Counted from the stretch's first letter, positions 14,525-64,000 are shown. The stretch: DNA of 64,000 nt from Candidatus Omnitrophota bacterium (GCA_015494465.1 WGBD01000001.1:116477-180476), one strand, 5' to 3'. Numbers and translations: made by a program. The notes: generated by a model from the letters alone, not told the origin.

Positions 14525-15210
14525 GAGTTCACCTCCTGAGGATACTCTATCTTCCTTATCACCAGTGTATAAGGCAATATCGGGATCGCCCCTGCCACCC
14601 TCACCGGCAGGCGCTTATCCCGGGATACCCACAACCTTATCTTCGCCGGCCGGGTAAAGACCTCCCAGGTGTCGAACACCCCTACGTGAGTGCTCATCTT
14701 CCCACCATCGCGCACCATCACCTCGTAACTGCCGGTTGGCAGGTTGACCTCCTTGATGGCATCCACCCCCCGGAAAAACGACTTCAGTATGACCAAGAAT
14801 ACGTTGTCCAGCGGTCCTTTTCCCTTCAGTACCTGCTCTCCGTCTCCTTCCTTTATCACCCGCACCTGCCCCTTCTCGGGATAGTAGATCTCCTCTATCC
14901 GTTCGTCCCTGCCCATGTACCTGACCTGTCGCCTTACCCTGATGGGGACGAGGGTCTGGGGATCCGCGAAGATATCCTCGGTATCCCTTAACTGGGGCGT
15001 TATCACCCTCACCCTTATGTGCCACAGGGGCCTATCCTCACCCTCCAGTGTGGTCATACCGAGGTCCTCTATCCAGGCCTTACCAATGCGAAACATACCC
15101 AACTTCACATCGTAAACCAACCTGGGCAGGGCCCCAATCCTATCCGCAAAGGATACCGTCCCCCACATCAGCGCAAGGATCCACCCAAGGGCAAGAAGCC
15201 TAAGGCCCAT
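14521..15210 (-). CDS. hypothetical secreted protein (DUF3108-like?)
   Basis: N-terminal signal peptide MGLRLLALGWILALMWGTVSFA; no catalytic motifs. Confidence 0.4.
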   Translation of the reverse strand: MGLRLLALGWILALMWGTVSFADRIGALPRLVYDVKLGMFRIGKAWIEDLGMTTLEGEDRPLWHIRVRVITPQLRDTEDIFADPQTLVPIRVRRQVRYMGRDERIEEIYYPEKGQVRVIKEGDGEQVLKGKGPLDNVFLVILKSFFRGVDAIKEVNLPTGSYEVMVRDGGKMSTHVGVFDTWEVFTRPAKIRLWVSRDKRLPVRVAGAIPILPYTLVIRKIEYPQEVNS

Positions 15211-17276
15211 CGCACCCCCTTTATCGCCAAAAAGACCCCCACTGATACCGCCAATCCCCAGAGAAAAGACCTCACCGCGGTCTTCCTATCCAAGGCCTTC
15301 GCCACTGCCCTATAGGCAGAAAAACAACCCGGCAGTAGGAACAATAGCACCATCAGGTCAGGAGAGGATATCCCATAGGCAGGGAACCTCATCCCCCGGA
15401 AGACCACCTCCACCGCCAAGACCAATTCCCTTGCCCACAAGCCAAACACCAGGGCCAGGAGATCAAGACCCGCAAGATCCCCCACCTTTACACTGTCCAA
15501 CCACCCGCCTATGGGGGTGTAGGTCTTCACCGCCCACAGGACCAGAGAGACTCCCAGAAACACACCTGCCACCTTCCGGGCGTACCCGAAGGCGTGATAG
15601 CAACCCTGCTCCAGAGCGGAGATCAGAGGGACCCACCTCAAGGCAGGCAGGGCAGTTATAGAAGGCGCTTCCAACGAGCGGGCACCGATTATCCCCTTAA
15701 AGAGCCGGGCAAACAGGGCAGTGTAGATCAACGAGGCCAAGATTAGAGAAAAGAGCCAACCAGTGGCCTCCCAGAAGGGAAGACTAACGAACAACACGAA
15801 GGCAAACACCACCCACACCCCAAGGCAGTTCCCCATGGGCAGGGCCATCGTCAGGGCGGTCCGGTCCCTTCCCTGAAGGAGCCTGCCCGCCAGCTCCACT
15901 GCGGGTATAGAACAGCCCAGATTGTGGAGCAACGGGACCAGAGAGACCCCGTGGAACCCAAAGAGGTGCAGGACGGGGTCCAAGGCAAAGGCTATCTTGT
16001 ACATCAAGTGGCTCTCGTGTAACAAGGTCTGGAAGAAAAAGAAGACAAACGAACTCAAGACAAACATCAGCAGTATCCCCAAAAAGAAGACCCCCCCTTG
16101 CACATACAAAGGTACTCCCCGGAGGCCCCCTATCAAGTGCAGGAGCCACATACCGGCCTTTACCGCCCCGCCCACGGAAAGGGCAAGACCGTAAAGCCAA
16201 CCTAAAAGTACGAGCCCCCAAAATAACCTGCCGACTACCTCCCGGGCAAAGGCCCTATCCTGCTTGCTCTCCTCCAGGACCCCCCTCACCAGGGCCAACC
16301 TCCTATCAAATACGCACTCCTCAAGCGACCTGCCGGTGAGGTGCCGACACCGCTCTTCACAGAAACGCCGTCCCTCTATCAACCTCTCCCGCACCTGAGG
16401 GTTCTTGAAGAATACCAAGGCATCCTGTTCCGATTCAAAGACCTTCACTACAACCCCGTCGAGAGGATAGACTATGCTGCACTCGCCTTCGGGTATCTCG
16501 CCTTTCACCCTCAACAGGCACTCCTCCAACGGAAACTCCAGAGGAAGCGAAAAGCGCACCTCCCCCGGGCCCTTTTCCAGAGACGCCAAGACCGCATCCA
16601 TTCCATAACCCCTCGCGGAAGAGACATAAACCACCTCAACCCCCGTCAACTCCCGGATCCTGCGGGCATCGTACCTGCTCAAGGACCCGTTTACCGCTAA
16701 GACGACACGCTTGCCGAGATCAACCAGATAGTGCACCAGAAGGAGATCCCTTTCAAGTGTCTCCTCTCTACCCAAAACGACTATCCAGTCGTAACTGCCC
16801 TCCAAGGCCAGCCTTAATCCCACCTCTTCGTACACCGACCAGGGAGGATCGGACATAACCGAAGGCAGGACGGAAAAGCGGATCCTCTTGTGCCTCCATA
16901 TGGTCTGCCCCACGAGGATAGGGGCCAAGGTCCCCTTGCGGACTTCCTCCTCGATCCCCCCACACACCTTAGAGATAAGGGCCCGTTTGCCTGCCCCGGC
17001 GAGGCCCAACACCGCTATCTCCAAGTAGACCTCCACATCCTCTTCAACGAATATGCGATCCAAGAGACCCCGTCCGACGATAACCTTACTACCGTTGACT
17101 ATTACCGAAAAGGGCCCGTTGGCAGAGAACCTATTCGTTATCACCACTCTGCTCCCCGGCAGGATCCCCAAACCGATAAGCCTGCACTGGGCCTCTCTAC
17201 CGCAGTCGAACTCCACCACCTTGAGTGGAACACCCACCGGTGCCTGTTTGAGTGGCAAACGGGATCCCATGGTCAT
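15168..17276 (-). CDS. FeoA-FeoB-like fusion protein with a degenerate G-domain (ferrous-iron-transporter-like membrane protein)
   Basis: N-terminal FeoA/SH3-like block (LKVVEFDCGREAQCRLIGLGILPGSRVVITNRF...GSKVIVGRGLLDRIFV). Next is a P-loop-like GLAGAGKRALIS that lacks the Ser/Thr and clear G3/G4 motifs. The C-terminal polytopic domain is homologous to the FeoB Gate region (LGCSIPAVELAGRLL...MALPMGNC); compare the true FeoB at 31460..33454 (GCNVPAIMATRTL...IPFMSCSARL). The start was moved to Met30 of the track ORF (17276). Confidence 0.55.
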   Translation of the reverse strand: MTMGSRLPLKQAPVGVPLKVVEFDCGREAQCRLIGLGILPGSRVVITNRFSANGPFSVIVNGSKVIVGRGLLDRIFVEEDVEVYLEIAVLGLAGAGKRALISKVCGGIEEEVRKGTLAPILVGQTIWRHKRIRFSVLPSVMSDPPWSVYEEVGLRLALEGSYDWIVVLGREETLERDLLLVHYLVDLGKRVVLAVNGSLSRYDARRIRELTGVEVVYVSSARGYGMDAVLASLEKGPGEVRFSLPLEFPLEECLLRVKGEIPEGECSIVYPLDGVVVKVFESEQDALVFFKNPQVRERLIEGRRFCEERCRHLTGRSLEECVFDRRLALVRGVLEESKQDRAFAREVVGRLFWGLVLLGWLYGLALSVGGAVKAGMWLLHLIGGLRGVPLYVQGGVFFLGILLMFVLSSFVFFFFQTLLHESHLMYKIAFALDPVLHLFGFHGVSLVPLLHNLGCSIPAVELAGRLLQGRDRTALTMALPMGNCLGVWVVFAFVLFVSLPFWEATGWLFSLILASLIYTALFARLFKGIIGARSLEAPSITALPALRWVPLISALEQGCYHAFGYARKVAGVFLGVSLVLWAVKTYTPIGGWLDSVKVGDLAGLDLLALVFGLWARELVLAVEVVFRGMRFPAYGISSPDLMVLLFLLPGCFSAYRAVAKALDRKTAVRSFLWGLAVSVGVFLAIKGVRWALGFLPLGGSLR

Positions 17277-17284
17277 AACGATGC

Positions 17285-17457
17285 CTAACCCGCCCTGAAG
17301 AACCTGTCCTTGCTCCCAAAAGGAGAGACCTTTACCTCCACCTTCTTCCCGCACTTGGGACAAAACCCAACGAATGCATCCTTCTTCCGGTTCAGATATA
17401 TCCTCTGATAGACCCTACAGCAGTCAAAGATTATACCCAAAAAGGGGGACCTCTTCA
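17285..17457 (-). CDS. small zinc-ribbon protein (57 aa), hypothetical
   Basis: Hand translation gives MKRSPFLGIIFDCCRVYQRIYLNRKKDAFVGFCPKCGKKVEVKVSPFGSKDRFFRAG, with CC...CPKCG Cys pairs. It fills the panB/FeoAB-like gap and abuts the FeoAB-like start. Confidence 0.3.
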
Positions 17458-31459: not shown

Positions 31460-33454
31460 CTAAAACCAGATCCTCCCCACCTGATACACCAACACGCTCA
31501 ATATCCAGCCCACCGCTATCGTGTATAGCGTAGAGATAACGGCCCAGCGCCAGCCCAACTCCTTTTTAATCACTGCAATAGTGGCCACGCAGGGGATGTA
31601 GAGGAGGGTCATAACCAAAAAAGACAGCGCGGATAGTCGAGAGAAGTAGAAGGGCAGGACGGTCCTCAGAGCACTCTCCTTCCCGCCTGACAGAAGCGTC
31701 CCCAAGGTGCCCACCACGACCTCCTTGGCCACCACGCCGAACACCAGTGCCACCGCTGCCTGCCAGAAGCCAAACCCCGCCGGGGAAAACACCGGGGCCA
31801 TCGCAGTCCCCATCCTGCCCAGAAGGGAATCCTTGGCACCGTACTCCACCCCCGGCGGAAGGGACGCCAGGAGCCACACCAGTATCACCGCTGCCAATAT
31901 CACCGTCCAGGCCTTGCGTATGAACTCGTAGGTCCTTATCCATGAGAACTTGAGCACCACCCGGGCCGATGGGACCCTGTAAGGTGGCATCTCCATTATG
32001 AGGAGGCTATCCTGGCCCTTGAACAGGATACGGTTCAGGACCATCGCGGATACCACTCCCACCCCGATTCCCAGGAGATAGAGGCCAAAGACCACCAGAT
32101 TCTCCTTCCCCGGGAAGAAGACCGAGGCAAAGAGGACATACACCGGCAGACGGGCAGAGCAACTCATAAACGGTATTATAAGGGTGGTGATTATCCTGTC
32201 CTTCTCGTTGGACAGGGTGCGGGTGGCCATAATCGCAGGGACATTGCAACCAAATCCTATGAGCATCGGGATAAAGGACTTTCCGTGCAGACCCAAGCGG
32301 TGCATAAACTTGTCCATTATAAACGCAGCCCGGGCAAGGTAGCCCGAGTCCTCCAGCACCGAGATGAAGAGATTCAGGAAGAATATGTTGGGCACGAATA
32401 CGAGTATGGATCCTACCCCGTCCAGCACCCCATCGGTCAGGAAGGAGACCAACAACTCCGGTGCACCCAAAGAGGAGAGGAATACCCCGAGCCAACCGCT
32501 CAGGGCGGACATAGCGGATTCTATTGCGTCCACGAACGGCTGAGCCACTTTGAACACACCGGTGAACACCCCGTACATAACCAAAAGGAACAACGGTATC
32601 CCGACGATGCGATTGGTGATGACCCTATCTACATACTCGGTAAAGGCCAGTCTCTGATTGAGGTCCACCACCCTGCGCAGGGACTCCCTCAACAACGCCT
32701 TGATAAACCCATACCTGCGTTCTGCTATGAAGACCGCCAGGTTGTGGGAATACTCCCCACGCAGGTCCTCCCGCGCCCTTGCAAGGTGCTCCCGCACCTC
32801 AGGGGAAAGCATTGCAATAGCGTCCTCCTCCCCCTCCAGGAAGGCCAAGGCCAAGAACCGATTGAGGCCCATCCGCTCGGCCTCTTGGAGAAAGGACTCC
32901 ACCTCCGGCCCGTAATCAACCCGCAGTAGCCCCACAGAAGGATGCGCCTCCAGGCAGACCGCTATGGCCCTCTTCAGGTCATCTATGCCCTTGCCCTGAT
33001 TGCCCACCGTCTTGACGACCCCGCAGGCACCGACTATCCGGGCAAAGACCCTCTCGTCCAGATCCGCGCCCAACTTCTCCATCTCGTCCCACATGTTCAG
33101 GGCCACCACCACCGGCAGGCCCATCTCCCTTATCTGGACCAGGAGGTAGAGGTTCCGCTCGAGGTTGGAGGCGTCTATGACCACGACGACGAGGTCGACC
33201 TCCTCCTTCAAGAGAAAGTCCCGGGCAATCTTTTCGTCTAAAGAGAAGGCGCTCAGTCCGTATATACCCGGCAGGTCCACGAGGCGGACCTTCTCCTCCC
33301 CCACCAGAAAGGTCCCTTCCACCAACTCCACCGTGGTGCCGGGCCAGTTCCCGACCTGCTCCTCCCCGCCGGTTAGGGCATTGAAGATGGTGGTCTTGCC
33401 TGCATTGGGATTGCCTGCCAGTACGACCGTCTTCATGTCTAACTCCCTGCTCAA
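31460..33454 (-). CDS. feoB: ferrous iron transport protein B
   Basis: Intact G-domain with G1 GNPNAGKTT, G3 DLPG and G4 NMWD, plus Gate motifs; 664 aa. Confidence 0.9.
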   Translation of the reverse strand: MSRELDMKTVVLAGNPNAGKTTIFNALTGGEEQVGNWPGTTVELVEGTFLVGEEKVRLVDLPGIYGLSAFSLDEKIARDFLLKEEVDLVVVVIDASNLERNLYLLVQIREMGLPVVVALNMWDEMEKLGADLDERVFARIVGACGVVKTVGNQGKGIDDLKRAIAVCLEAHPSVGLLRVDYGPEVESFLQEAERMGLNRFLALAFLEGEEDAIAMLSPEVREHLARAREDLRGEYSHNLAVFIAERRYGFIKALLRESLRRVVDLNQRLAFTEYVDRVITNRIVGIPLFLLVMYGVFTGVFKVAQPFVDAIESAMSALSGWLGVFLSSLGAPELLVSFLTDGVLDGVGSILVFVPNIFFLNLFISVLEDSGYLARAAFIMDKFMHRLGLHGKSFIPMLIGFGCNVPAIMATRTLSNEKDRIITTLIIPFMSCSARLPVYVLFASVFFPGKENLVVFGLYLLGIGVGVVSAMVLNRILFKGQDSLLIMEMPPYRVPSARVVLKFSWIRTYEFIRKAWTVILAAVILVWLLASLPPGVEYGAKDSLLGRMGTAMAPVFSPAGFGFWQAAVALVFGVVAKEVVVGTLGTLLSGGKESALRTVLPFYFSRLSALSFLVMTLLYIPCVATIAVIKKELGWRWAVISTLYTIAVGWILSVLVYQVGRIWF

Positions 33455-52226: not shown

Positions 52227-53110
52227 CTCTTCCCCTCCAGCTTTCGGCCGTAACCTGCCAGAAACTCCACGATCCCCATCCTCCGTTTACCTGCCGGCTG
52301 TACCTCCACCGGTAAGATCGCCCTATCGGCTGTACCTATCATCAATCCCTTTTTATCCACTACCACCTCACCCGGGGCCAGTCTTTGTTCGGCGATCTCT
52401 GCCCACCATATCTTCAGCTCTATCTCACCAATGATCGTCCATGCCCCCCAATAAGGTGAACCCGCCCTCACGAGGTTGTACACCCCTTCTGCAGGGGAAT
52501 TCCAATCTATCCTCAAAAGATCCCGATCAACCTTCCTGGCGTAAGAAGGCTCTCCCTCCTGCGGTCGATCCGTCGGCAAATCAGATCGAGAAAACACCTC
52601 GAGCAAGGCAGAGACAGCCTTCTCCGCCAAGGCCCTCTCCAAGTCTGCGTAAGACCATTGGATGGGAACCGAGACCTGCTCCTGGCGAACGATCCTGCCG
52701 GTGTCTATCCCCTCGTCCATCCAGAAGAGGCTAACACCGCTTTCCTTATCCCCGCTGCGGATGGTCCAAAAGATAGGCGCAGGGCCTCTCCACCTGGGGA
52801 GAAGGGAGGGATGCAAGTTAAGACAACGCCGTGTCCTTACTAGGTTTGGGGGGAAGATGAAACCTATGTCGCAGGCCACTATAAGGCCCTCCTCTTCAAG
52901 TAATACTCCTTCCGCGTCGATCCCGTCCAATTCCAGGACATCCAAGCGGTGCTCTAAACAGACCCGTTTTACCGGCAGGGGGCCTAGCCCCCCTCTAGGC
53001 AGCCTTCTATCGCCTAGGGTGTAGACGCGAGAGGGAGCCCTCCCACGCTCTAATATCCCCTGCAACACCCGGGCGCCAAACCTACCGCTGGAACAATACA
53101 CCCATCTCAC
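52217..53110 (-). CDS. fmt: methionyl-tRNA formyltransferase
   Basis: Formyl-transferase N-domain (NLHPSLLPRWRGPAPI) and Fmt C-terminal domain. Confidence 0.7.
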   Translation of the reverse strand: MRWVYCSSGRFGARVLQGILERGRAPSRVYTLGDRRLPRGGLGPLPVKRVCLEHRLDVLELDGIDAEGVLLEEEGLIVACDIGFIFPPNLVRTRRCLNLHPSLLPRWRGPAPIFWTIRSGDKESGVSLFWMDEGIDTGRIVRQEQVSVPIQWSYADLERALAEKAVSALLEVFSRSDLPTDRPQEGEPSYARKVDRDLLRIDWNSPAEGVYNLVRAGSPYWGAWTIIGEIELKIWWAEIAEQRLAPGEVVVDKKGLMIGTADRAILPVEVQPAGKRRMGIVEFLAGYGRKLEGKRCE

Positions 53111-54282
53111 AGCTGTGTCTCCCTCAATACCTCCTCCAGCGTAGTGAGTCCCATCTTCACCTTTCGCAGGCCATCTTCCCTCAACGAGACCATCCCCAGT
53201 TCCTTGGCCCTGCGGAACAACCCTTCTGTGGAGATCCTATCCAGAATAAGCGGATGCAGCTCCGTGCTTACCCCCAGAAATTCGAATATACCGATCCTGC
53301 CTCGATACCCGCTACCTCCACAGGCCTCACAGCCTACCCCTTTGAAGAACCGGCCCTCTCTGAGCTCGTCCTCATCAAGACCAAAGGCATCTATCTCCGC
53401 CTGGGTTGGTTCGTATACCTCTATGCATTGAGGACAAATCCTCCTTACCAATCTCTGGGCGATCACCGCCCTAAGGGTAGCAGTGATAAGGTACGGCTCT
53501 ATCCCCATGTCGATCAAGCGAGTAATCGCGCCGGGTGCGTTGTTGGTGTGCAGAGTAGAAAAGACCAGGTGTCCGGTCAGGGCGGAATGGATGGATATCT
53601 CCGCGGTCTCTCTGTCCCTTATCTCCCCTACCATTATTACATCTGGATCCTGACGCAATATCGTGCGCAATATCACTGCAAAGTCCAGTCCTATCTTGGG
53701 ATTTATCGGCACCTGAACCACACCTGGAAGATCGTATTCAATGGGGTCCTCTACGGTGATCAACTTCCTGTGTATCTGATTCAACTCCCTAAGGAAGGCG
53801 TACAAGGTCGTGGTCTTACCGCTCCCCGTAGGTCCGGTCACCAAGATCATGCCGTTGGTGAACTCGAGCAGGGACTGGTACAGGTGTATGTCCTCTTCCC
53901 AGATCCCAAGCTCCCCTAACTGTATGTCTATGTTGCCCTTATCCAATATCCGCAGTACCACGCTCTCACCAGTAACCGTGGGAAGGGTGGAGACCCTAAA
54001 GTCCACATCCTTACCGTTAATACGCATCCTTATTCGCCCATCCTGAGGGACACGATTCTCTGCCACATCCAAGCCTGCCAAGACCTTTATACGGGAAACG
54101 ATAGGGGAAAACAGCTCTTCCGGGGGGCTTGCTAGATCCCTCACGACGCCATCCACCCTTGCCCTTACCTTGAATCCTTCCGGAAAGACCTCGAAGTGGA
54201 CATCACTGGCCTTGAGCTCTACCGCCTCTGACAGGATAGCGTCCAACAACTGGACGACGGGTGCAGAAGCCCCTGCGCTCAT
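53107..54282 (-). CDS. GspE/PilB-family type II/IV secretion ATPase (short form with C-terminal tetracysteine Zn motif)
   Basis: Walker A GPTGSGKTT, Asp box, Walker B, His box; CPQC...CEACGGSGY. Confidence 0.75.
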   Translation of the reverse strand: MSAGASAPVVQLLDAILSEAVELKASDVHFEVFPEGFKVRARVDGVVRDLASPPEELFSPIVSRIKVLAGLDVAENRVPQDGRIRMRINGKDVDFRVSTLPTVTGESVVLRILDKGNIDIQLGELGIWEEDIHLYQSLLEFTNGMILVTGPTGSGKTTTLYAFLRELNQIHRKLITVEDPIEYDLPGVVQVPINPKIGLDFAVILRTILRQDPDVIMVGEIRDRETAEISIHSALTGHLVFSTLHTNNAPGAITRLIDMGIEPYLITATLRAVIAQRLVRRICPQCIEVYEPTQAEIDAFGLDEDELREGRFFKGVGCEACGGSGYRGRIGIFEFLGVSTELHPLILDRISTEGLFRRAKELGMVSLREDGLRKVKMGLTTLEEVLRETQL

Positions 54283-55322: not shown

Positions 55323-55998
55323 TCTCGGCTACCTCCCATTCAGCCACCCATCCCTCTGGTAACACCACTCCCCCTGAGACGACGGCCTGCAAGGCAGACT
55401 CTACACTTACATCCAAAGCGATAACTTCGTCCTTTCTCACGAACTCCAGGAATCCCGTCAAAGGACTAGGGGAAGTAGGGACGAACACCGCAACGAAAAC
55501 CTCACCCTCTTTCGACGGCAGATGGACCCCGTCAGAGCTCAAGAAAGCGATAGAATACATGCCCTTTCGGGGGTATTCTATCAAGACGACCCTGCCCCAC
55601 TTCTTCTCCTGCTGTTGGAAAAAGTACTGAGCAATCCTTTTTAGAGAGGAATATATCCTGCCCACCAAAGGCAGGCGTTCTACCCAATGCTCGAAAAAGG
55701 CCATTATGCGCCGGGCGAGGAAGTTCTGGACCAGCAGACCCACGAAAAAGATCAACACCAAAGACAAAACTATACTCAACCCCGGGACCTCAAAGCCCAG
55801 TGCCAGACGGACCAACGAGTTGAGGTACCTACCTATAGCCACATCGATGAGCTTAAATATCAGACCGATAACATATATAGTCAACACTACCGGCGTAACG
55901 ACCGCCAATCCTGAGATAAAGTACCTTCGCCAGCGACTCATCCACATAACCCGATTTACCTCTCCTTTAGCAATTGCTTTACCCAATCGAGTTCCCAA
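55315..55998 (-). CDS. DUF502-family membrane protein
   Basis: Two N-terminal TM helices plus the conserved DUF502 core; the true start is probably the internal MSRWRRYF. Confidence 0.55.
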   Translation of the reverse strand: MGTRLGKAIAKGEVNRVMWMSRWRRYFISGLAVVTPVVLTIYVIGLIFKLIDVAIGRYLNSLVRLALGFEVPGLSIVLSLVLIFFVGLLVQNFLARRIMAFFEHWVERLPLVGRIYSSLKRIAQYFFQQQEKKWGRVVLIEYPRKGMYSIAFLSSDGVHLPSKEGEVFVAVFVPTSPSPLTGFLEFVRKDEVIALDVSVESALQAVVSGGVVLPEGWVAEWEVAENE

Positions 55999-57536
55999 TC
56001 GTATATCCCGTTCTTCTTCAAGACCTTGCTCACGTAACCGTCGGTTATAGCGTCCAGATCCGACCTCAACCGCTGTATCCTATAAAGCAGATCGAGTAGT
56101 TTTGCTACATCCTTTGGCGGAGACAACACCAAACGGGTCTGGAGCTTTCGCCTCTCGAAGTAAGTCTGATTGACCTGATCAAGGATGTCATCTCTCAATT
56201 CTACCGTAAGTTTGGACCTGGTATCAATCGAGATCTCCTCTTTGGACCAGACCAACTCTTTGAGATCCCACTCCAGCGATATCCCAAAGTCCCCTGAAGA
56301 GTAAACCGTCTTATCGTCTGGACCGACATTTGAGTTGCCGTAAGAAGATACCGCAACCGAATCGGAAACTGACCTACTACCACTCAGATCCACATCCAAA
56401 GACACCTTGGGTAAAAGCGCTCTTTTCCTAACCGCCTCTCGCCAGGCAATTATCTTCTCAGGGCTGACCTCTGCTACCTGCATAGCAACTTCTTGGATCT
56501 CGTCTATTGCCGGTTCCTGCGCAAACATCCTCCACAAGAAGAGCATCCTATCCCCGTTAGGCGAGGCAGGAGACACCGTCTGAATGCGCCTTACATACAA
56601 TCGACGCGAGCTACACACCAAGGCATAGGACCCCCTAAAGTCTCCGGAATAGATGTCTAGATCCTCCAGGCCCTGGTCATCTGACTCTCCCGAATAGACC
56701 AAGAAAACACCTTCGTTTCCGTAGGCTATCGCCTCCTCGGGGAAAAGCAGCCCCCTAAGTTCACCAGGATAATCAAAGACCTTTTTACTGCCTTCCTTCT
56801 CATCGACCATCCACACCGCTTTACCCCTAGCGAACAAGACCTTCCGTTGGTCCCAGATGACCTGATTCCCCTTGTAGGGGACTGTCTCCGAATCCGGTAT
56901 CCAACTTTCCTCGTACACCGGCTCCCAACTTCCAAGATCTACGACGATTATGCGATCCTTTGTCAATACAGCTAGGCGATCTCCAGAAGAAGAGACTTCC
57001 AGATCAAGCACACCCCTAGCAGTGAAGACCCGATCCCAGTGGGATCCATCTGTCGAGCGGTATACCCCCTCTTTTGTCCCTATCAATAGGGAACCTCTGC
57101 CCCCGCCGACGCAGGTGACGAGCTTTCCCGGTGGAGAGAACACCCTCTTTGCCCTCTTCTTCTCCTGCCCCAGCTCCACCACGAATAATCCCAAAGAAGA
57201 GGCCCAATACAGCCTGCCCCTCCACACCAACGCATCGTACACCCCTAGATCTTCTCCTCCCCTCAACCTGCACAGCCTAAAGGCACCGGAATCCCGTAGG
57301 CACCAAACATAGTTCTTATCAAACAGATAAGCCTCCCCCCCAGGGCCCAAACGCACTAACCTAATGGGAGTACCATTCCAAGGAAGAGGTAGCCAATCAC
57401 CGAGGAGAACCGAGGCAAAGGAGAGGAAAAGGATCAGAGACAATCCTAATCTTCCCACGCTAACCTGTCCCCCACTTCTAAGCCCCAACGCGAGGCACTT
57501 CCACCCGCTACCTCCAACACATAAGAGGCCGACCAC
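55956..57536 (-). CDS. hypothetical exported protein with BNR/Ycf48-like beta-propeller repeats
   Basis: N-terminal hydrophobic segment; repeated motifs resembling Asp-box/BNR (VYRSTDGSHWDRV); 526 aa. Confidence 0.4.
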   Translation of the reverse strand: MVGLLCVGGSGWKCLALGLRSGGQVSVGRLGLSLILFLSFASVLLGDWLPLPWNGTPIRLVRLGPGGEAYLFDKNYVWCLRDSGAFRLCRLRGGEDLGVYDALVWRGRLYWASSLGLFVVELGQEKKRAKRVFSPPGKLVTCVGGGRGSLLIGTKEGVYRSTDGSHWDRVFTARGVLDLEVSSSGDRLAVLTKDRIIVVDLGSWEPVYEESWIPDSETVPYKGNQVIWDQRKVLFARGKAVWMVDEKEGSKKVFDYPGELRGLLFPEEAIAYGNEGVFLVYSGESDDQGLEDLDIYSGDFRGSYALVCSSRRLYVRRIQTVSPASPNGDRMLFLWRMFAQEPAIDEIQEVAMQVAEVSPEKIIAWREAVRKRALLPKVSLDVDLSGSRSVSDSVAVSSYGNSNVGPDDKTVYSSGDFGISLEWDLKELVWSKEEISIDTRSKLTVELRDDILDQVNQTYFERRKLQTRLVLSPPKDVAKLLDLLYRIQRLRSDLDAITDGYVSKVLKKNGIYDWELDWVKQLLKER

Positions 57537-57802
57537 ACCGGCCAGAGCATAATTCGACCAGGAGGATAGTTAGGGAGGATGCGGACGATTCGACCTTGGG
57601 AATCCAAAAAGATCACATCTATTGGGAAACGCATGCCAAGCGTGTGAATCATGTTGCAATCCGGGAAGAGCAATCCTTCCTCGTAAGAAAGGTGATGCCT
57701 GGACAACAACCCAATAAGTCTCTTCCAAAAAGAGCGGGCAACCTTCAGCTTGGTCAGTAATACCGAATTATCCCCCCTTCTTATTAATCTCATAAAAGAC
57801 AT
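57446..57802 (-). CDS. DUF192-family protein
   Basis: LLFPDCNMIHTLGMRFPIDVIFLD matches the DUF192 (COG1430) core. Confidence 0.55.
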   Translation of the reverse strand: MSFMRLIRRGDNSVLLTKLKVARSFWKRLIGLLSRHHLSYEEGLLFPDCNMIHTLGMRFPIDVIFLDSQGRIVRILPNYPPGRIMLWPVWSASYVLEVAGGSASRWGLEVGDRLAWED

Positions 57803-59981
57803 CCTTTGGCGTAAATACGGACTTGTCTAACTTGATCCCCCGTCGCAACATCTCGTCGTAAAAACTGGGGATGTACCCAGTAGCGGTAAACTCTCCTAAT
57901 ATTCTCCCATCCTCATCTACGCCCGTCTGGACGAACACAAAGACATCTTCCATCCTAACGGTCATCATGTCCTCTTCCAGACCGGTCAATTCCGATATCT
58001 TCATGACCTTCCTAGAGCCATCGCTCAACCTAGCGGTATGGACCACGACATCTATGGCCGAGGCGACCATCTCCCTTATCGCCCGGATGGGCAGTTCCAC
58101 CCCACTCATGAGGATCATAGAGTCCAATCGGGCGATGACATCTTGAGGAGAATTGGCGTGTACCGTGGTCAGGGATCCGTCGTGTCCGGTGTTCATGGCC
58201 TGAAGCATGTCTAATGCCTCTACACTTCGGCACTCGCCTATGATTATTCTATCCGGCCGCATCCTTAATGTATTGCGAAAGAGGTCGCGTATAGTTATTT
58301 CACCTTTACCCTCTATATTTGGAGGCCTGCTTTCCAACCGCACCCAGTGCTCCTGGTGAAGCCTAAGCTCTGCTGCATCTTCAATGGTCACGATCCTTTC
58401 GTGGTCCGGTATGAATTGGGAAAATGCATTCAAGACCGTGGTCTTACCCGAGCCAGTCCCTCCGGATATTACCATGTTCTTCCTGGCGATAATACAGGCC
58501 TTTAAGAACTCTGCCATCTCTGGGGTCAGGGTGCCAAAGCGGATGAGATCTTGTGCGGTATACCGCTCCTTGCCAAACTTACGAATCGTAAGCATCGGGC
58601 CATTCAGGGAAAGGGGAGGGATGATCGCGTTGACCCTGGAACCGTCCGGCAAGCGCGCGTCCACCATTGGAACCGACTCGTCAATTCTCCTACCCAAAGG
58701 CGCGATGATACGCTCTATTATCTGCACGACCTGCTCGTTGGATATAAACTTTTTATCCTCCACCTTCTGCAGTTTCCCAAACTTTTCGATGTAAATCTGA
58801 TCCTTGTTGTTGACCATTATGTCGGTGATGTCGGGATCCTTGAGGAGGTCCTCCAGTGGGCCAAATCCTAAGGCCTCGTCTGCTATCTCCTTCACCAGCC
58901 TAGCCCGAATCTCGTAGTCCTCTAAGGATCCCCCCAACTCCTCTGCCAATATCTCCCCAATCATCCGCTCGGTATTCGCCCTCAGCTCGTGCCTTGCAGA
59001 GGTCTCTATCTTCAAGAAGTCCAATTTGCGTAGCTCCATCCTCTCCACCAGCTTCAAGTGCACCCGCTTTTTGAGGCTGACGACCTCGTCCACCTGTTCC
59101 TTCTTCTCCACATCCGACTCAAACCCATACTCTCGCCAGAAAGACACCAGGGCAGAGACCTCTTCTTCCTCTACCTCCACATCGGATAAGCTCCTCTTGG
59201 GCACATAAAGGTCTTCATCCTTTAGCAGGAGTTCAGCCAATCTGGTAACCGCCATACCCACCTTACTGTTGGGCTCGTACATCACGACCGGGATACCAAA
59301 ATTCAGGGCCTCTCCTACCACCCGTCCTTCACTAGGGATCTGGGCTATTATGTCCAGAGGAAGGATCGTCTTTATCTCCTTAAGACCCACACCTCCTTTA
59401 CTTGCAGACCTATTGAGGACTCCCTTCACTAGCTCTTTAGGGAGAAACAGTCCTGCTAATGTGCTCAACATCTCCTTTGATTGGTAAACGGAAAGCAAAT
59501 CAGGCAATACCACATCTATTACCAGATTAGCCAGATCCAAGAGCTTAGCCGAAAACCCCACCAAGTTATGACCGCCATCTACGACCACGAAGTCGTACAG
59601 TTCACCTAGCCTCTTGAGAAGATGGCGAGGGTCTACCCGCTCCAGCAAGGGCAGATCCCCAGGCTTCAGGATTACGGGGATGTACTCTAACTTAGAATTG
59701 TGCTGTAGCCTGTATTCAGAGAAATACCTGCTCAACTTCTCTAGGGATACATCTGGGCTGAGATCCTGATGATCCACATAAAAGTTGAGGAAAGAGCGGG
59801 CAGGGAAAAGCCCCAGCAATCTCGCAGGATCGCCAACTATCGGTAGGCTAGAATCTATCAAGAGGACTCTGGCACCGGATAACGAGAGAGCAACCGCGGT
59901 ATTCGTGGCCAGGAACGATACGCCTACCCCGCCCTTAAAGCTAAAGAAATAGACGAACTTGGCCATCTCACTGGAAGACAA
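57768..59981 (-). CDS. fused CpaE/TadZ-like (MinD/ParA-fold, atypical Walker A) and CpaF/TadA secretion ATPase
   Basis: N-terminus SFKGGVGVSFLATN has a deviant Walker A lacking the catalytic Lys/Thr, as in TadZ. The C-terminal 400 aa are a VirB11/CpaF ATPase (GGTGSGKTT Walker A, IIGECR, GHDGSLTTVHA His box). Confidence 0.75.
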   Translation of the reverse strand: MSSSEMAKFVYFFSFKGGVGVSFLATNTAVALSLSGARVLLIDSSLPIVGDPARLLGLFPARSFLNFYVDHQDLSPDVSLEKLSRYFSEYRLQHNSKLEYIPVILKPGDLPLLERVDPRHLLKRLGELYDFVVVDGGHNLVGFSAKLLDLANLVIDVVLPDLLSVYQSKEMLSTLAGLFLPKELVKGVLNRSASKGGVGLKEIKTILPLDIIAQIPSEGRVVGEALNFGIPVVMYEPNSKVGMAVTRLAELLLKDEDLYVPKRSLSDVEVEEEEVSALVSFWREYGFESDVEKKEQVDEVVSLKKRVHLKLVERMELRKLDFLKIETSARHELRANTERMIGEILAEELGGSLEDYEIRARLVKEIADEALGFGPLEDLLKDPDITDIMVNNKDQIYIEKFGKLQKVEDKKFISNEQVVQIIERIIAPLGRRIDESVPMVDARLPDGSRVNAIIPPLSLNGPMLTIRKFGKERYTAQDLIRFGTLTPEMAEFLKACIIARKNMVISGGTGSGKTTVLNAFSQFIPDHERIVTIEDAAELRLHQEHWVRLESRPPNIEGKGEITIRDLFRNTLRMRPDRIIIGECRSVEALDMLQAMNTGHDGSLTTVHANSPQDVIARLDSMILMSGVELPIRAIREMVASAIDVVVHTARLSDGSRKVMKISELTGLEEDMMTVRMEDVFVFVQTGVDEDGRILGEFTATGYIPSFYDEMLRRGIKLDKSVFTPKDVFYEINKKGG

Positions 59982-61527
59982 AGGGCAAGTCTAACCAGAC
60001 TACATCCAGATCCGTACCCTCTGGCAAAGGCGGAAGAGGTTGAATGTCTCGGGCGATGTTCAATGCTATGCGCTCGAGTCTCTTGTCCCCCGGTGACTCC
60101 TTTATGACGACATTCTCAACGCTCCCATCCTCTCGCACCTTCAGGCTTACCACCACCTTACCTTTCGCGTCCACAAGGGGATACCTCCTCAGCTCCTCTC
60201 TCACCTTTCGTAACACATACTTGGCATAATCCTCTATATCCTTAATGGCAGGTCCATCTTCGCCATCTTGACTCGATCCCGCCGCCTTTCCCGCCTTATA
60301 CTCCGATACTTCTCCCACATCTCCTTGGGATACAAGTCCCAGAATCTCCGGGGTAATGGTAATCACCAATTCGGTCTCGGAAGAGGTGATGTCTTTAGAC
60401 CTGAAGAACTCGCCTATTATCGGCAGTTTCGACAAACCGAATAAGGCAGATCTGTTCTCCCCTTTCTTTCTCTGCAACAATCCCCCTATCACCACCGTTT
60501 GGCCGTCCTTCAGCGTAATCTCTGTCTCCGCCTGGCGGGAAACAAATGCCGGTACCGAATAAACTGCATTGGTGGTATCCGTAGCGATGTTAACCGTAGT
60601 AGAGTGCACAGGGTCTATGTCTGAAACCTCACACTTTATCTTGAGGTCCAGGCCTTCGCGAATTATGGTCGGCGTCATGTCCAATATCACCCCGTAAGGT
60701 TTATACTCCACACTGGCGGTATTATCCTCGTAAGTGACGATCGGTATCTCTCCTCCTACCACTATCTTGGCGGGCTTACCATTTGCGGCCATTATGTTTG
60801 GCCGGGCCAAGACCTTACCCTTGTGATTGGTCTCCAAGGCCCTTATCAATATAGACAAGTCGTTCCTCTCCCATATGTTAAACCTAATAGCCCCTCGGGA
60901 AAAGGGAAGACCATTGCCTGACTCATCCTCAACATCTTGTCCTATAGCGGTAAGGCGCAACTCTTGAGGCCAGGAGATGCCAAATCCCTTATTGAGGTCC
61001 GTACCCACCTCCAGCACATTTAGAGATAACCTGATACTATCCTTTACACTTGCCTCGTGGACCAGGTTTACCAACACCTGACTACCCAAAGCGCTTACCG
61101 CTTGTTCCACCCTATTCATCTCCTCATGGCTAAAGACCGTACCGCTGAGAAGGAGCAGTCCACTTTCTTTATCTAGTTTGAGGCTCACCTTTTTATCCAA
61201 TCCCAGTGCAGAGAGAATCCTTTTCAGTTTCTTGTACTGGAGCTCCACATCCTCCTCCCACACCACCACCTCGTATTTTCTCTCTTGTCCATCTGAGCCC
61301 ACAATTACTAGATCCGTCCGCCCGGATTCCTTTCCCGTGAGCAAAACATCCGTCTCGTCCACAGTAACATCCAGGACCGCTGGATTGGAAATAGATATCT
61401 GGGTAGGGACCTCCTCTAGCTTGAGGGGAACCGTCTCACCCTTAACGAGGTACAAGACCCCTGCTTGAGCAAAAGGAGCCATAAGGAAAAATAATCCAAT
61501 CACCCCCGCACAGAGACGGGAAATCAT
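59968..61527 (-). CDS. secretin (CpaC/RcpA-like) with a C-terminal TonB_C-like domain
   Basis: Signal peptide, N-terminal BON/pilus-formation-like domain, and secretin core (ARPNIMAANGKPAKIVVGGEIPI...GLSKLPIIGEFFRSK...ELVITITPEI). The C-terminal ~90 aa (YVLRKV..YPLVDAKGKVVVSLKVREDGSVENVVIKESPGDKRLERIALNIARDIQPLPPLPEG) resemble a TonB C-terminal domain. Confidence 0.7.
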   Translation of the reverse strand: MISRLCAGVIGLFFLMAPFAQAGVLYLVKGETVPLKLEEVPTQISISNPAVLDVTVDETDVLLTGKESGRTDLVIVGSDGQERKYEVVVWEEDVELQYKKLKRILSALGLDKKVSLKLDKESGLLLLSGTVFSHEEMNRVEQAVSALGSQVLVNLVHEASVKDSIRLSLNVLEVGTDLNKGFGISWPQELRLTAIGQDVEDESGNGLPFSRGAIRFNIWERNDLSILIRALETNHKGKVLARPNIMAANGKPAKIVVGGEIPIVTYEDNTASVEYKPYGVILDMTPTIIREGLDLKIKCEVSDIDPVHSTTVNIATDTTNAVYSVPAFVSRQAETEITLKDGQTVVIGGLLQRKKGENRSALFGLSKLPIIGEFFRSKDITSSETELVITITPEILGLVSQGDVGEVSEYKAGKAAGSSQDGEDGPAIKDIEDYAKYVLRKVREELRRYPLVDAKGKVVVSLKVREDGSVENVVIKESPGDKRLERIALNIARDIQPLPPLPEGTDLDVVWLDLPFVFQ

Positions 61528-62813
61528 AAGCCTCCCCCTTTTATTGGTCTGTATCTCTCGAAAGGAGAAATCAATTCATCCTCACTCTCGCTTAATCTCT
61601 CCTCGAATTCCTTCCCTTCTTCGGACTCTTTCTCCTCCGTGGATCTTACCTCTGTCCCTTCCTCCTCATCCTTCTGCTCTCCAGATCCCTCTTCGCTCGT
61701 CAAGAGGGCCTTCTTAAACATGGACAAGATCTTTTGGCCCATCTCTTTATCCCTGCTCTCCCTGACTTGGGGAATACTTTCCCTGTCCGGTCTTTCGGTC
61801 TCCCCTTTTAGGAGAATCTCCTTCACTTCCACGACCCCACCTTTTCTTATCTTTATGGTACGGGTAGCAGGCTTGGGAGCAACTCTTTGCCCCATAAGCT
61901 GTAGGGCCTGCTTCGCCTTCTCGGCTTGCTCCTTTGCCTTTGCCATCTCGCTCGCCTGCTTCAGCAGTTCCGGGATTGCATACTGGAGCACTGCATCAAC
62001 AGTAACAGGAGGGATCCTCGTCTCGTCTGTGTCCAGACGCGAACGAGGGAATATCCTTATGCTCCCCAATTGAGAGGCCATGAGCAAGATTGCAGCGTCC
62101 CTAGGGGGTAAAGCGAAGGTCAAAGTCCCTTGATTAGGATTAAATGGAACCCTCTCTTTGCCCTCGTCGTCCCTCCTTTTTCTTATACTTCTCGAACTCT
62201 CTTTCCCTTTAGGGCCTCTACTTGCGTAAAAGACGCCATTTACTGCCTTTATCTCCACATTGGAAAACAGACCAGCGGTCACCATCTGGGAGGGCGGGAG
62301 ATTGAACATCAAAGCGATGTCCACCTTGTCACCTGGCTTTATAAATCTAAACAGGTCGAGCTGTTGGACCTGCACCGTAACCAGGCGTCTACCCAGAGGA
62401 ATGACCTGCCGGCGCAGGACATCGGGAGAGACCAACCTGGGCATCAATACCTGCTCTCCCTTAACTAGATCAACCGTTACTAGTTTCCCTATCACCGCAT
62501 CCAGAGACCCCGCAGAGGCAGGCAACTTCCGGGAGCGAGGGACCATTATCTCCTCCACCATCTCCGAGGTAAGGATGGTCCCTGCCTTGATGTCTTCCTT
62601 CGCCACCACCACCGGCACCTTTGCCTCTACCCGTTTGGTCGCGGTCATCCGCCTCAATTCGTCACTTAACCTCTGAAGCTGTTGCTGTTGTTGATATAGC
62701 CGTTGTTGCAAGATCATCGCCCGCTGGCGTTCCCTCTGGAAATAGACATAGGCGATCGAGGCAGCCAATATACCCGAAACGATGGCGAGAATTAATGGAA
62801 GGTTTCTACCCAT
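61524..62813 (-). CDS. cpaB: CpaB/RcpC-like Flp pilus assembly protein (TM, SAF domain) with a long acidic Lys/Glu-rich C-terminal tail
   Basis: N-terminal TM LILAIVSGILAASIAYVYF, SAF-like VPVVVAKEDIKAGTILTSEMV, RcpC-like beta region; the last ~110 aa are low-complexity E/K-rich. Confidence 0.6.
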   Translation of the reverse strand: MGRNLPLILAIVSGILAASIAYVYFQRERQRAMILQQRLYQQQQQLQRLSDELRRMTATKRVEAKVPVVVAKEDIKAGTILTSEMVEEIMVPRSRKLPASAGSLDAVIGKLVTVDLVKGEQVLMPRLVSPDVLRRQVIPLGRRLVTVQVQQLDLFRFIKPGDKVDIALMFNLPPSQMVTAGLFSNVEIKAVNGVFYASRGPKGKESSRSIRKRRDDEGKERVPFNPNQGTLTFALPPRDAAILLMASQLGSIRIFPRSRLDTDETRIPPVTVDAVLQYAIPELLKQASEMAKAKEQAEKAKQALQLMGQRVAPKPATRTIKIRKGGVVEVKEILLKGETERPDRESIPQVRESRDKEMGQKILSMFKKALLTSEEGSGEQKDEEEGTEVRSTEEKESEEGKEFEERLSESEDELISPFERYRPIKGGGL

Positions 62814-62878: not shown

Positions 62879-64000
62879 TTACAAATTTTCAAAATGTTTC
62901 TCTATGGAAGATTCATAATGCGATCTCACAGAATCCACTATCTTCTTTATTCTCTCTGCGTTTTCAAGGTCTTTATATGCCCGTTCCAACGCCTGCCTGA
63001 GCTGCGCAGGCAACTCTTCCCAACTGACAAGCGAATATTTCTTTTCCTTGGGTAAAAAGAAAAGATATACTTTATCCCCAATAGCAAGTCTCACCGGATC
63101 AGACCCTACCGGAACAGAGGAAATAAGATTAAAATACGCATTTATTTCCTCCAGTCTCTGCTTAATCTTCCTCTTTTCTCCTTCATCCTTGGCATCCGCT
63201 AATCTAGCCTGTAAATCCTGCAACTCTTTCACAAGAGATGCGGTACTGACGCGCTCTACATATGCTGGCCCCATTGTCTCTCTGGCAACGCTTCTGAAGG
63301 CCTCTTTAGCATCGCCATTATTCTGCGCTTTCTCCTGATAAAAACGCCCCATTACCGCATCCGCCTGAGAAGACGAATCAACCTCTATCTTCCATATGGT
63401 TGTCCTCCAATCCACCATATAATCGAGGATTGGAAATCCCAAACGGGTAGCAATCTTGGCCAATTCCGTATTAAGGAAATTCTCATAATTTGGGGAGTTG
63501 GATTCTAAATCCATTCGCAGGGCATCCAGTGCCCGATTATACATATCCCTGACATCATCCTCAGCTACTTCCGTGGTACTTCCTTCCTCCTGAAGCATTT
63601 TATTCGTAGAAAGCATTAAACCATAAATCTTCTGCATTGACTTTACATCCGGATACTTATTATATCCTCGTTCTATAGCGGCAACTGCAGCCAGCATACT
63701 CTTAACAAACTCGTCGTACACGGACTTTTTCTTATCTTCCGGCAACCCGAGAAAAGAGTCCTTAGCACTATCAGGAGGAACATTTGCATTCAAGGCATAC
63801 CAAGCGTAAAAATCGTCTACTGTAAATGTATAGGGACCTACTTTTAATGCTATTTTATCGGCTGGCAGAGAAGTGGACGATCCTTTTGCTGAGGGAGATG
63901 TTGCAGAAGAGACCGATTGTTCCACATTACTCTGGGTGCCTAAAACACCTTTATCGGCATTTTTGCCACACCCCCCAAGAACGAAAAGGATCGGCAAGAA
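62879..64000 (-). CDS. putative lipoprotein, hypothetical (5' end possibly beyond the window)
   Basis: Lipobox LFVLGGCGK at the N-terminus with C at the +1 position. The upstream hydrophobic signal region runs to the window edge. K/E/N/S-rich, and about 43% GC versus about 57% for the flanks. Confidence 0.5.
   Translation of the reverse strand, partial: FLPILFVLGGCGKNADKGVLGTQSNVEQSVSSATSPSAKGSSTSLPADKIALKVGPYTFTVDDFYAWYALNANVPPDSAKDSFLGLPEDKKKSVYDEFVKSMLAAVAAIERGYNKYPDVKSMQKIYGLMLSTNKMLQEEGSTTEVAEDDVRDMYNRALDALRMDLESNSPNYENFLNTELAKIATRLGFPILDYMVDWRTTIWKIEVDSSSQADAVMGRFYQEKAQNNGDAKEAFRSVARETMGPAYVERVSTASLVKELQDLQARLADAKDEGEKRKIKQRLEEINAYFNLISSVPVGSDPVRLAIGDKVYLFFLPKEKKYSLVSWEELPAQLRQALERAYKDLENAERIKKIVDSVRSHYESSIEKHFENL

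Follow-up and report, generated by a model that had tools for sequence, protein, structure and literature searches.

A Tad-type secretin of Candidatus Omnitrophota that ends in a TonB_C domain

The DNA analysed here, referred to as the window, is a stretch of 64,000 nucleotides from a Candidatus Omnitrophota bacterium (GCA_015494465.1, WGBD01000001.1:116477-180476). At 59968-61527 on the minus strand it contains a gene that encodes an outer-membrane secretin of the RcpA/CpaC type, belonging to a Tad/Flp pilus machine. The gene is a single open reading frame of 519 amino acids without interruption of the frame. These coordinates are exactly those of an initial annotation, made from the sequence alone, in which a secretin carrying a C-terminal TonB_C-like domain was proposed. 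The start codon overlaps the stop codon of the preceding cpaB gene by 4 nt. The exact protein is also recorded in an NCBI contig of 781,960 bp and in a Logan contig of 4,971 bp (L049).

The protein begins with a putative signal peptide (residues 1-22, 61462-61527; this and all following features of the gene are on the minus strand), MISRLCAGVIGLFFLMAPFAQA followed by G, which was read by eye from a hydrophobic core and a subsequent AQA motif. The Tad-secretin N-terminal domain PF13629 (T2SS-T3SS_pil_N) covers residues 22-89 (61261-61464; E 4.8e-12 in the Pfam scan) and is rich in beta structure in the model, with a predicted local distance difference test score (pLDDT) of about 85. A second periplasmic ring-type domain of alpha/beta composition is predicted at residues 94-160 (61048-61248), where the Pfam matches, to BON and Yop-YscD, are weak (E 0.004-0.08) and the model has the order helix-strand-strand-helix-strand with pLDDT 83-88. 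The same scan gave no match in the 519 amino acids to PF03958, PF21305 or AMIN, the N-domain being of the Tad type, unlike the N0 and AMIN domains of GspD and PilQ. The secretin core spans residues 215-396 (60340-60885), delimited by the Pfam match to PF00263 (Secretin) at 230-396 (140.4 bits, E 5.4e-41) and by alignment with the PDB. The solved Tad secretins align with this core (8jvb, E 1e-32; RcpA of P. aeruginosa, 8odn, E 9e-27), and residue 396, where the secretin domain ends, corresponds to about residue 370 of RcpA. Two further segments follow. The first is a disordered tether of residues 397-430 (60238-60339; pLDDT <30), variable in length and fast-evolving, and the second is a C-terminal domain of the TonB/TolA type, residues 431-519 (59971-60237), which is supported by hidden Markov models (HMMs), comparison of a profile with the PDB, a fold search, conservation in the family and the ratio of nonsynonymous to synonymous substitution rates (dN/dS).

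The C-terminal tail has a genuine TonB_C fold. In Pfam, TonB_C (PF03544) matches residues 455-518 with 34.4 bits against a gathering cut-off of 24.6 (E 3.1e-8) and TonB_2 (PF13103) matches residues 432-506 with 28.6 bits against a cut-off of 22, while the NCBIfam model TIGR01352 (tonB_Cterm) gives 44.4 bits against 27.1. Curated thresholds are thus passed in two independent libraries; both Secretin and TonB_C are significant in the one protein, as the initial annotation had anticipated. A profile of 14 tails of the family finds the C-terminal domain of H. pylori TonB in the PDB (5lw8/6sly) with E 1.3e-11 over the whole domain, and the next matches are further TonB, TolA-III and HasB chains. 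With the window tail as a single sequence the TolA and TonB matches are marginal (E about 0.05), and the family profile was needed for significance.

The structural models agree with the profiles. The full-length AlphaFold model, which is of the monomer only and has an overall predicted template modelling score (pTM) of 0.43, contains an alpha-beta-beta-alpha-beta unit at residues 431-518 with pLDDT of about 80-87, and the segment 399-425 between the barrel and the tail domain has pLDDT <30. The elements of the unit are alpha1 431-446, beta1 456-465, beta2 470-477, alpha2 482-494 and beta3 509-518, and the limits of about 430-519 first suggested for the domain correspond to those of the model. 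Modelled alone with the 14 family tails, the tail has the same topology with pLDDT 92.9. A Foldseek search of the PDB with this tail-only model recovers the TonB-type fold: the top 27 matches are all TonB C-terminal domains, HasB, FusB or TolA-III, with noise below, and the best is the H. pylori domain 6sly with a TM score of 0.63. The last strand, 509-518, is highly conserved with P515 invariant, a conservation that maintenance of the fold explains as well as binding by beta-strand addition.

Selection has acted on the tail as on the secretin. Comparison of the window gene with an 88%-identical relative (L053) gives a dN/dS of 0.037 for residues 1-396 and 0.044 for the TonB_C domain but 0.47 in the linker, the pattern of a domain under constraint attached through a flexible tether that is not constrained. 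Family-wide, the pairwise identity is 43% in the secretin core, 35% in the TonB_C domain, 33% in the N-domain and 12% in the linker. The linker is about 35 amino acids long in the window protein, 29-113 amino acids across the alignment and up to about 200 in other members, and K, E, P, A and S are over-represented in it.

The fusion is common to all members of the family and is found throughout the Omnitrophota. The 15 close clusters that are full-length every one carry the tail, with Y434, G456, V458, G468, P500 and P515 invariant. A scan of species-representative genomes, a set that lacks the window genome and in which the best match has 46% identity, gave at least 24 more full-length relatives, all from metagenome-assembled genomes (MAGs) of Candidatus Omnitrophota and all ending in the same tail. 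In an alignment of 32 sequences the Secretin and PF13629 domains are found in all and Pfam TonB_C in 28 (best E 4e-36). The same fused frame in all 32 rules out that the tail is a separate reading frame, the other outcome considered in the initial annotation. Distant members have the textbook TonB_C signature YPxxAxxxGWxGxVxLxLxIxxDGxLxxxxVxxSSGxxxFDxxALxxAxxxxPYxxFP. A HMMER search with the tail profile, exhaustive over 1.84 billion representatives, gave 45 secretin fusions among the best 150 matches, with one TonB_C copy in 31, two in 13 and three in a single protein. A search with a canonical member gave 261 proteins at E ≤ 1e-20; the best 120 of the 261 all combine PF13629 and Secretin with one to three copies of TonB_C, and every named source organism among these 120 is Omnitrophota, except one labelled only "bacterium". 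In CpaC proteins of the ordinary kind, from other phyla, the match extends over only about 70% of the query and the tail is missing. Altogether the fusion was found in independent assemblies and sources (NCBI, ENA, JGI and Logan) in hundreds of clusters. The label "uncultured Planctomycetales" of some ENA bins was considered as a second phylum and rejected, the secretins in question being 63-74% identical to those of MAGs labelled as Omnitrophota.

Some of the fusions are far longer than the window protein. P0148 (1091 aa), P0174 (1045 aa) and P0229 (851 aa) have two or three TonB_C copies 100-170 amino acids apart, and P0148 has about 300 extra residues beyond the last copy. The closest relatives of the tail outside the secretins are proteins of 2-6 tandem TonB_C domains, such as P0125 (L054:3234-4914), which has five copies in 560 amino acids; P0136, P0141, P0142 and about 100 others are of the same kind.

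The genes of the Tad module in the window all lie on the minus strand and are tightly packed, in the order lipoprotein, cpaB/rcpC, secretin, TadZ::TadA, DUF192 and a 526-amino acid protein. Directly upstream of the secretin is the gene for the CpaB/RcpC alignment-complex protein (61524-62813, 429 aa; Pfam RcpC E 6e-11, SAF E 3e-10), and directly downstream one for a TadZ (ParA/MinD-like)::TadA/CpaF fusion of 737 amino acids (57768-59981), with the T2SSE ATPase at residues 371-651 (E 1e-62) and CbiA/ParA/AAA_31 matches at 8-105. TadZ and TadA are separate proteins in characterised Tad systems. The DUF192 protein that follows (57446-57802, 118 aa; Pfam E 3.6e-22) belongs to COG1430 and has no obvious signal peptide; we know of no role assigned to DUF192 in Tad systems. 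Two genes upstream of the secretin is a divergent lipoprotein of the PrsA/SurA-like parvulin foldase family with the lipobox FVLGGC (62879-63997), the N-terminus of which is cut by the end of the window.

The neighbourhood was compared with 23 related Omnitrophota loci over flanks of about 10 kb at either end of the secretin gene. CpaB is adjacent in 23 of the 23, TadZ::TadA is present in 22, the upstream lipoprotein gene, encoding about 310 amino acids, in 21 and DUF192 in 13. The TadZ::TadA fusion is 48-92% identical across the loci, much more than the secretin. The lipoprotein has a lipobox (LSGC, ISGC, IFGC and others) in nearly every locus, and its family consensus is parvulin-like with Pfam SurA_N/Rotamase matches in L050 and L051; the copy in the window has no significant Pfam match. 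Orthologues are found for instance at L001:4034-5227, L004:923-1828 and L051:8033-8974, and in 18 other loci.

Downstream of the module there are arrays of 5-10 tandem Flp-type pilin genes in L011 (16783-21455), L012 (18874-21322) and L051 (17812-19738). The pilins begin with a KKGQSTxEYA motif followed by a hydrophobic helix, and the number of paralogues is unusually large; the arrays confirm that these distant loci are Tad machines. A regular-expression search for the motif found no Flp pilin in the window. T2SSF platform genes (TadB/TadC) were found neither in the window nor, over the 10 kb or so that flank the secretin, in any of the related loci (L001-L024 and L050-L052). The window thus holds only part of the machine, and the Tad genes seem to be distributed over more than one part of the genome. 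A family of about 500 amino acids downstream in distant loci was considered as the platform protein and rejected, as it has no transmembrane segments and a helix-turn-helix-like N-terminus.

The protein of 526 amino acids that follows DUF192 (55956-57536) combines a hydrophobic N-terminal segment with a helical C-terminal region and has a weak beta-propeller-like (CNH) match. Its conservation is limited to L001-L003, L050 and L052, that is, to the subclade of the window, for which reason it was rejected as a universal partner. A second T2SSE-family ATPase of 391 amino acids (53107-54282, minus strand), with a full-length match in Pfam (E 6e-131), is encoded some 3.5 kb downstream, beyond DUF502 and MscS genes, in a synteny kept in close relatives. 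It may be a PilT-like retraction ATPase or part of another pilus system.

Several genes that accompany secretins or TonB elsewhere were looked for. The tetratricopeptide repeat (TPR) pilotin TadD, RcpB and the OmpA-like CpaD were found neither in the window nor within 10 kb in the 23 related loci, and the same holds for ExbB/ExbD and TolQ/TolR and for TonB-dependent receptors in the 64-kb window and the 23 loci. As the flanks examined reach about 10 kb, accessory or stator genes may lie elsewhere in the genome. The window also carries two genes for FeoB-type ferrous iron transporters (15168-17363 and 31460-33454, both on the minus strand), one of them fused to FeoA; the iron-uptake genes seen in the window are thus of the Feo type only, and no TonB-dependent receptor is encoded in it. 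The protein itself has no inner-membrane N-terminal helix of the TonB type, a signal peptide and secretin domains being found there instead. It is not a TonB energy transducer, since these domains replace the motor-binding membrane helix and stator genes are not nearby.

The protein resembles RcpA and CpaC (8odn, 8jvb) in PF13629, in the secretin core, in CpaB/RcpC upstream and TadZ with TadA downstream, and in the Flp-type pilins of the related loci. The difference lies at the C-terminus, which in RcpA is an unstructured S-domain of about 46 amino acids and here is a tether with a folded TonB_C domain in one to three copies, and in the genes for TadD, RcpB and CpaD, which are not nearby. In P. 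aeruginosa the last four residues of the S-domain of RcpA bind the lipoprotein pilotin TadD and without them the secretin fails to assemble (PMC10499894). The Omnitrophota loci do not have the features of such a dependence: the C-terminus is folded, no TPR lipoprotein is found within the flanks examined, and a PrsA/SurA-like lipoprotein is conserved instead. In Caulobacter the OmpA-like lipoprotein CpaD forms a belt round the CpaC barrel; it is encoded right after cpaC and is required for the machine (PMC13170226). Both the CpaD belt and TadD are accessory modules that surround the barrel of the Tad secretin at its periplasmic face and are required for its assembly or anchoring. Their genes lie beside that of the secretin, a place taken in Omnitrophota by the fusion. 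CpaD and TadD differ from the TonB_C tail in being separate, lipid-anchored polypeptides of unrelated folds.

The tail is homologous to the C-terminal domain of TonB (5lw8/6sly; 1u07/2gsk in E. coli) and to domain III of TolA, with TM of about 0.63 and the same fold including the N-terminal helix, and the canonical TonB motifs are present in most family members. TonB and TolA have an N-terminal helix in the inner membrane that engages ExbBD or TolQR and reach up to the outer membrane, whereas here the domain would hang from an outer-membrane pore in the reversed topology and without a motor-binding part. The C-terminal domains of both TonB and TolA bind their targets through beta-strand addition (PMC12204202).

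The closest functional analogy is with ExeB/GspB and ExeA/GspA from the type II secretion machinery in Aeromonas and Vibrio, where a TonB-like periplasmic protein binds directly to the secretin and is linked to peptidoglycan. Aeromonas ExeB binds N0N1 of the secretin and is needed for its assembly in the outer membrane together with the peptidoglycan-binding ExeA; a strand contact like that of TonB with the TonB box was proposed by the authors (PMC4098917). ExeB, described as TonB-like, differs in acting in trans, in being anchored in the inner membrane and in contacting N0N1, which is absent from Tad secretins. PocAB-TonB3 of P. aeruginosa and GltG/GltJ of the gliding machine of M. xanthus are TonB_C proteins that serve motility or pilus machines and not nutrient import. 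The type IVa pilus machine depends on PocAB-TonB3, which is ExbBD-TonB-like, and a contact between TonB3 and PilQ was suggested (PMC5285504). These proteins differ from the fusion in that they are inner-membrane, motor-associated and unfused, their contact with the outer membrane being only proposed.

The position of the tail points to a role at the periplasmic side of the pore. In solved secretins the C-terminus leaves the barrel at its outer surface and on the side of the periplasm, where S-domains bind pilotins, and by analogy the tail is probably periplasmic. The barrel ends at about residue 396 and is followed by the flexible tether and the conserved TonB_C domain. With a multimeric pore (13-14 subunits in RcpA of P. 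aeruginosa) and a periplasmic C-terminus, each pore would have a ring of tethered TonB_C domains. These may bind a partner in the envelope by beta-strand addition, and the docking would direct the pore to its place there, assemble it or hold it fast. We therefore propose, with a probability of roughly 0.55, that the TonB_C tail is a docking module encoded in cis that targets, assembles or anchors the pore and replaces accessory factors acting in trans. It would be an in-cis counterpart of TadD on the tail of RcpA, of the CpaD belt, of ExeB/GspB with ExeA and of the AMIN domains of PilQ. Candidate partners are the PrsA/SurA-like lipoprotein two genes upstream and the CpaB ring; the lipoprotein may be a dedicated chaperone or pilotin of the secretin as well as a partner of TonB_C. 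Docking or anchoring to a periplasmic partner, one of three functions suggested in the initial annotation, is the best supported of them, given where the tail lies, its flexible tether, the lack of accessory genes nearby and the precedents of TadD, CpaD and ExeB/GspB.

Some observations weigh against a cis-encoded docking module. The periplasmic location of the tail is taken from other secretins, and pilotin-like or OmpA-like genes could sit in the genome beyond the flanks of about 10 kb. No TonB_C partner was found: the TonB-box expression [DEQ][TS][ILVM][ILVMT]V[TS][AGS] has no match in the lipoprotein and CpaB families, which is uninformative in itself, TonB boxes being poorly conserved. 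Tad secretins are without N0, the proposed place of the TonB-like contact in the type II secretion and type IVa pilus systems. Four of the 32 aligned members are weaker than E 1e-3 against Pfam TonB_C, and in the window subclade the domain is degenerate, with the canonical YPxxAxxxGxxG and SSG motifs partly lost, so that its binding specificity may differ from that of canonical TonB_C.

A more specific version of the docking module can be put forward tentatively, as a guess that may well be wrong. The fusion could be read as a Rosetta stone and the protein as a self-piloting secretin, with a ring of outer-membrane-tethered TonB_C arms of reverse topology that would capture a beta-strand of a partner, either the PrsA-like lipoprotein or an inner-membrane or motor-linked protein, and thereby place, assemble or gate the pore of a pilus for predation or attachment.

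Tethered periplasmic domains in multiple copies would also suit a polymeric ligand, and the TonB_C domains might bind the sacculus directly and pin the pore to the wall in the way supposed for the OmpA-like CpaD or the AMIN domains of PilQ. Peptidoglycan synthesis is intact in Omnitrophota, in which a complete pathway is described (preprint 10.64898/2026.06.07.730766), Caulobacter has a peptidoglycan-binding belt round CpaC, and a gene for a peptidoglycan-binding accessory protein is absent from the examined loci. We nevertheless regard a direct anchor in peptidoglycan as unlikely. The established mode of the TonB_C fold is the addition of a beta-strand of a protein, and the literature searched gave no evidence of peptidoglycan binding by TonB C-terminal domains, the binding being assigned to ExbD, TolR, MotB and ExeA. 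The linkers of 100-200 amino acids and the two or three tandem domains of some members also exceed the length needed for reaching the wall.

The tail could instead act within the machine, on the N-domains of its own or a neighbouring subunit or on the CpaB ring, as a clamp for oligomerisation, a regulator of the gate or a link in alignment, with no external partner. Beta-strand addition is already used there, as the N-domain of RcpA in P. aeruginosa is engaged by RcpC through beta-sheet completion (PMC12307814). CpaB is adjacent to the secretin in all 23 loci, and both ExeB and TonB3 have been proposed to touch N-domains of secretins. The single-chain model, with its low pTM and its linker of pLDDT <30, does not dock the tail on the N-domains with any confidence, however. 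The tail would exit close to the outer membrane, the N-domains and CpaB being situated further into the periplasm, and the linkers of about 30 amino acids in the window clade limit the reach. A contact confined to the machine therefore also seems rather improbable.

Coupling to an energised inner-membrane complex, the least supported of the three functions suggested in the initial annotation, is disfavoured. The outer-membrane-tethered TonB_C domain would in that case dock on a system of the ExbBD or TolQR type driven by the proton-motive force, or on an adaptor, which would energise the assembly, localisation or gating of the pore. There is genetic precedent in the ExbBD-TonB-like complexes that control type IV pilus machines, the linker is rich in P, E and K like the periplasm-spanning spacer of TonB, and the closest relatives of the tail are the multi-TonB_C proteins. 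The lack of the TonB N-terminal membrane helix or any motor-binding segment, the tethering to the outer membrane and the absence of ExbB, ExbD, TolQ and TolR genes from the window and the related loci make energy or signal coupling very doubtful, the more so as TonB_C is the target-binding end of a transducer and not the end that generates the force. The tail might still dock on a partner that is linked to a motor. Finally, the degenerate TonB_C of the window and public names that cover one half of the protein might raise the suspicion of an artefact or decaying remnant without function as a fusion, in which read-through, a frameshift or the assembly has joined a secretin gene to a tonB gene next to it. 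This is effectively refuted by the same fusion in hundreds of clusters from independent assemblies and by the tail itself, which keeps an invariant position, occurs in duplicate in some lineages and is under purifying selection as strong as that on the secretin core.

Common as the secretin::TonB_C fusion is in Omnitrophota MAGs, no description of it was found in the literature that could be searched, and the initial annotation had rightly marked the architecture as unusual. The fusion is a Tad secretin with a known domain added and not a new kind of system. In the databases the fusion proteins bear the name of one domain or the other: NCBI has "TonB family protein" and JGI has "pilus assembly protein CpaC". 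In a survey of Omnitrophota that includes a Tad/RcpA phylogeny the word "TonB" does not occur (PMC10066038), and a 2025 evolutionary survey of TonB and TolA contains neither "secretin" nor "Omnitrophota". Complete Omnitrophota genomes are the subject of a 2026 preprint that mentions "TonB-domain content" next to pilus cassettes without once using the word "secretin". In a recent Omnitrophota survey canonical receptor clusters were not found beside the genes for giant proteins; the label "TonB family protein", carried by hundreds of proteins, could be misread as evidence of TonB-dependent uptake.

Secretins need help to reach the outer membrane, to assemble in it and to stay fixed there, and the helpers are specific to the system, such as pilotins, OmpA-like belts, AMIN domains and GspAB. 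Which ones serve the Tad pilus secretins is still being established. In a phylum-wide secretin, a TonB-type domain at the pilotin-binding position suggests a solution that is built into the protein itself, and the fusion gives a testable handle on the old idea that TonB-like proteins such as ExeB/GspB and TonB3 contact secretins. The Omnitrophota are ultra-small and probably predatory or parasitic, and Tad pili have been proposed to act in attachment to the host. Through this proposed attachment the architecture of the Tad machine bears on the biology of the Omnitrophota.

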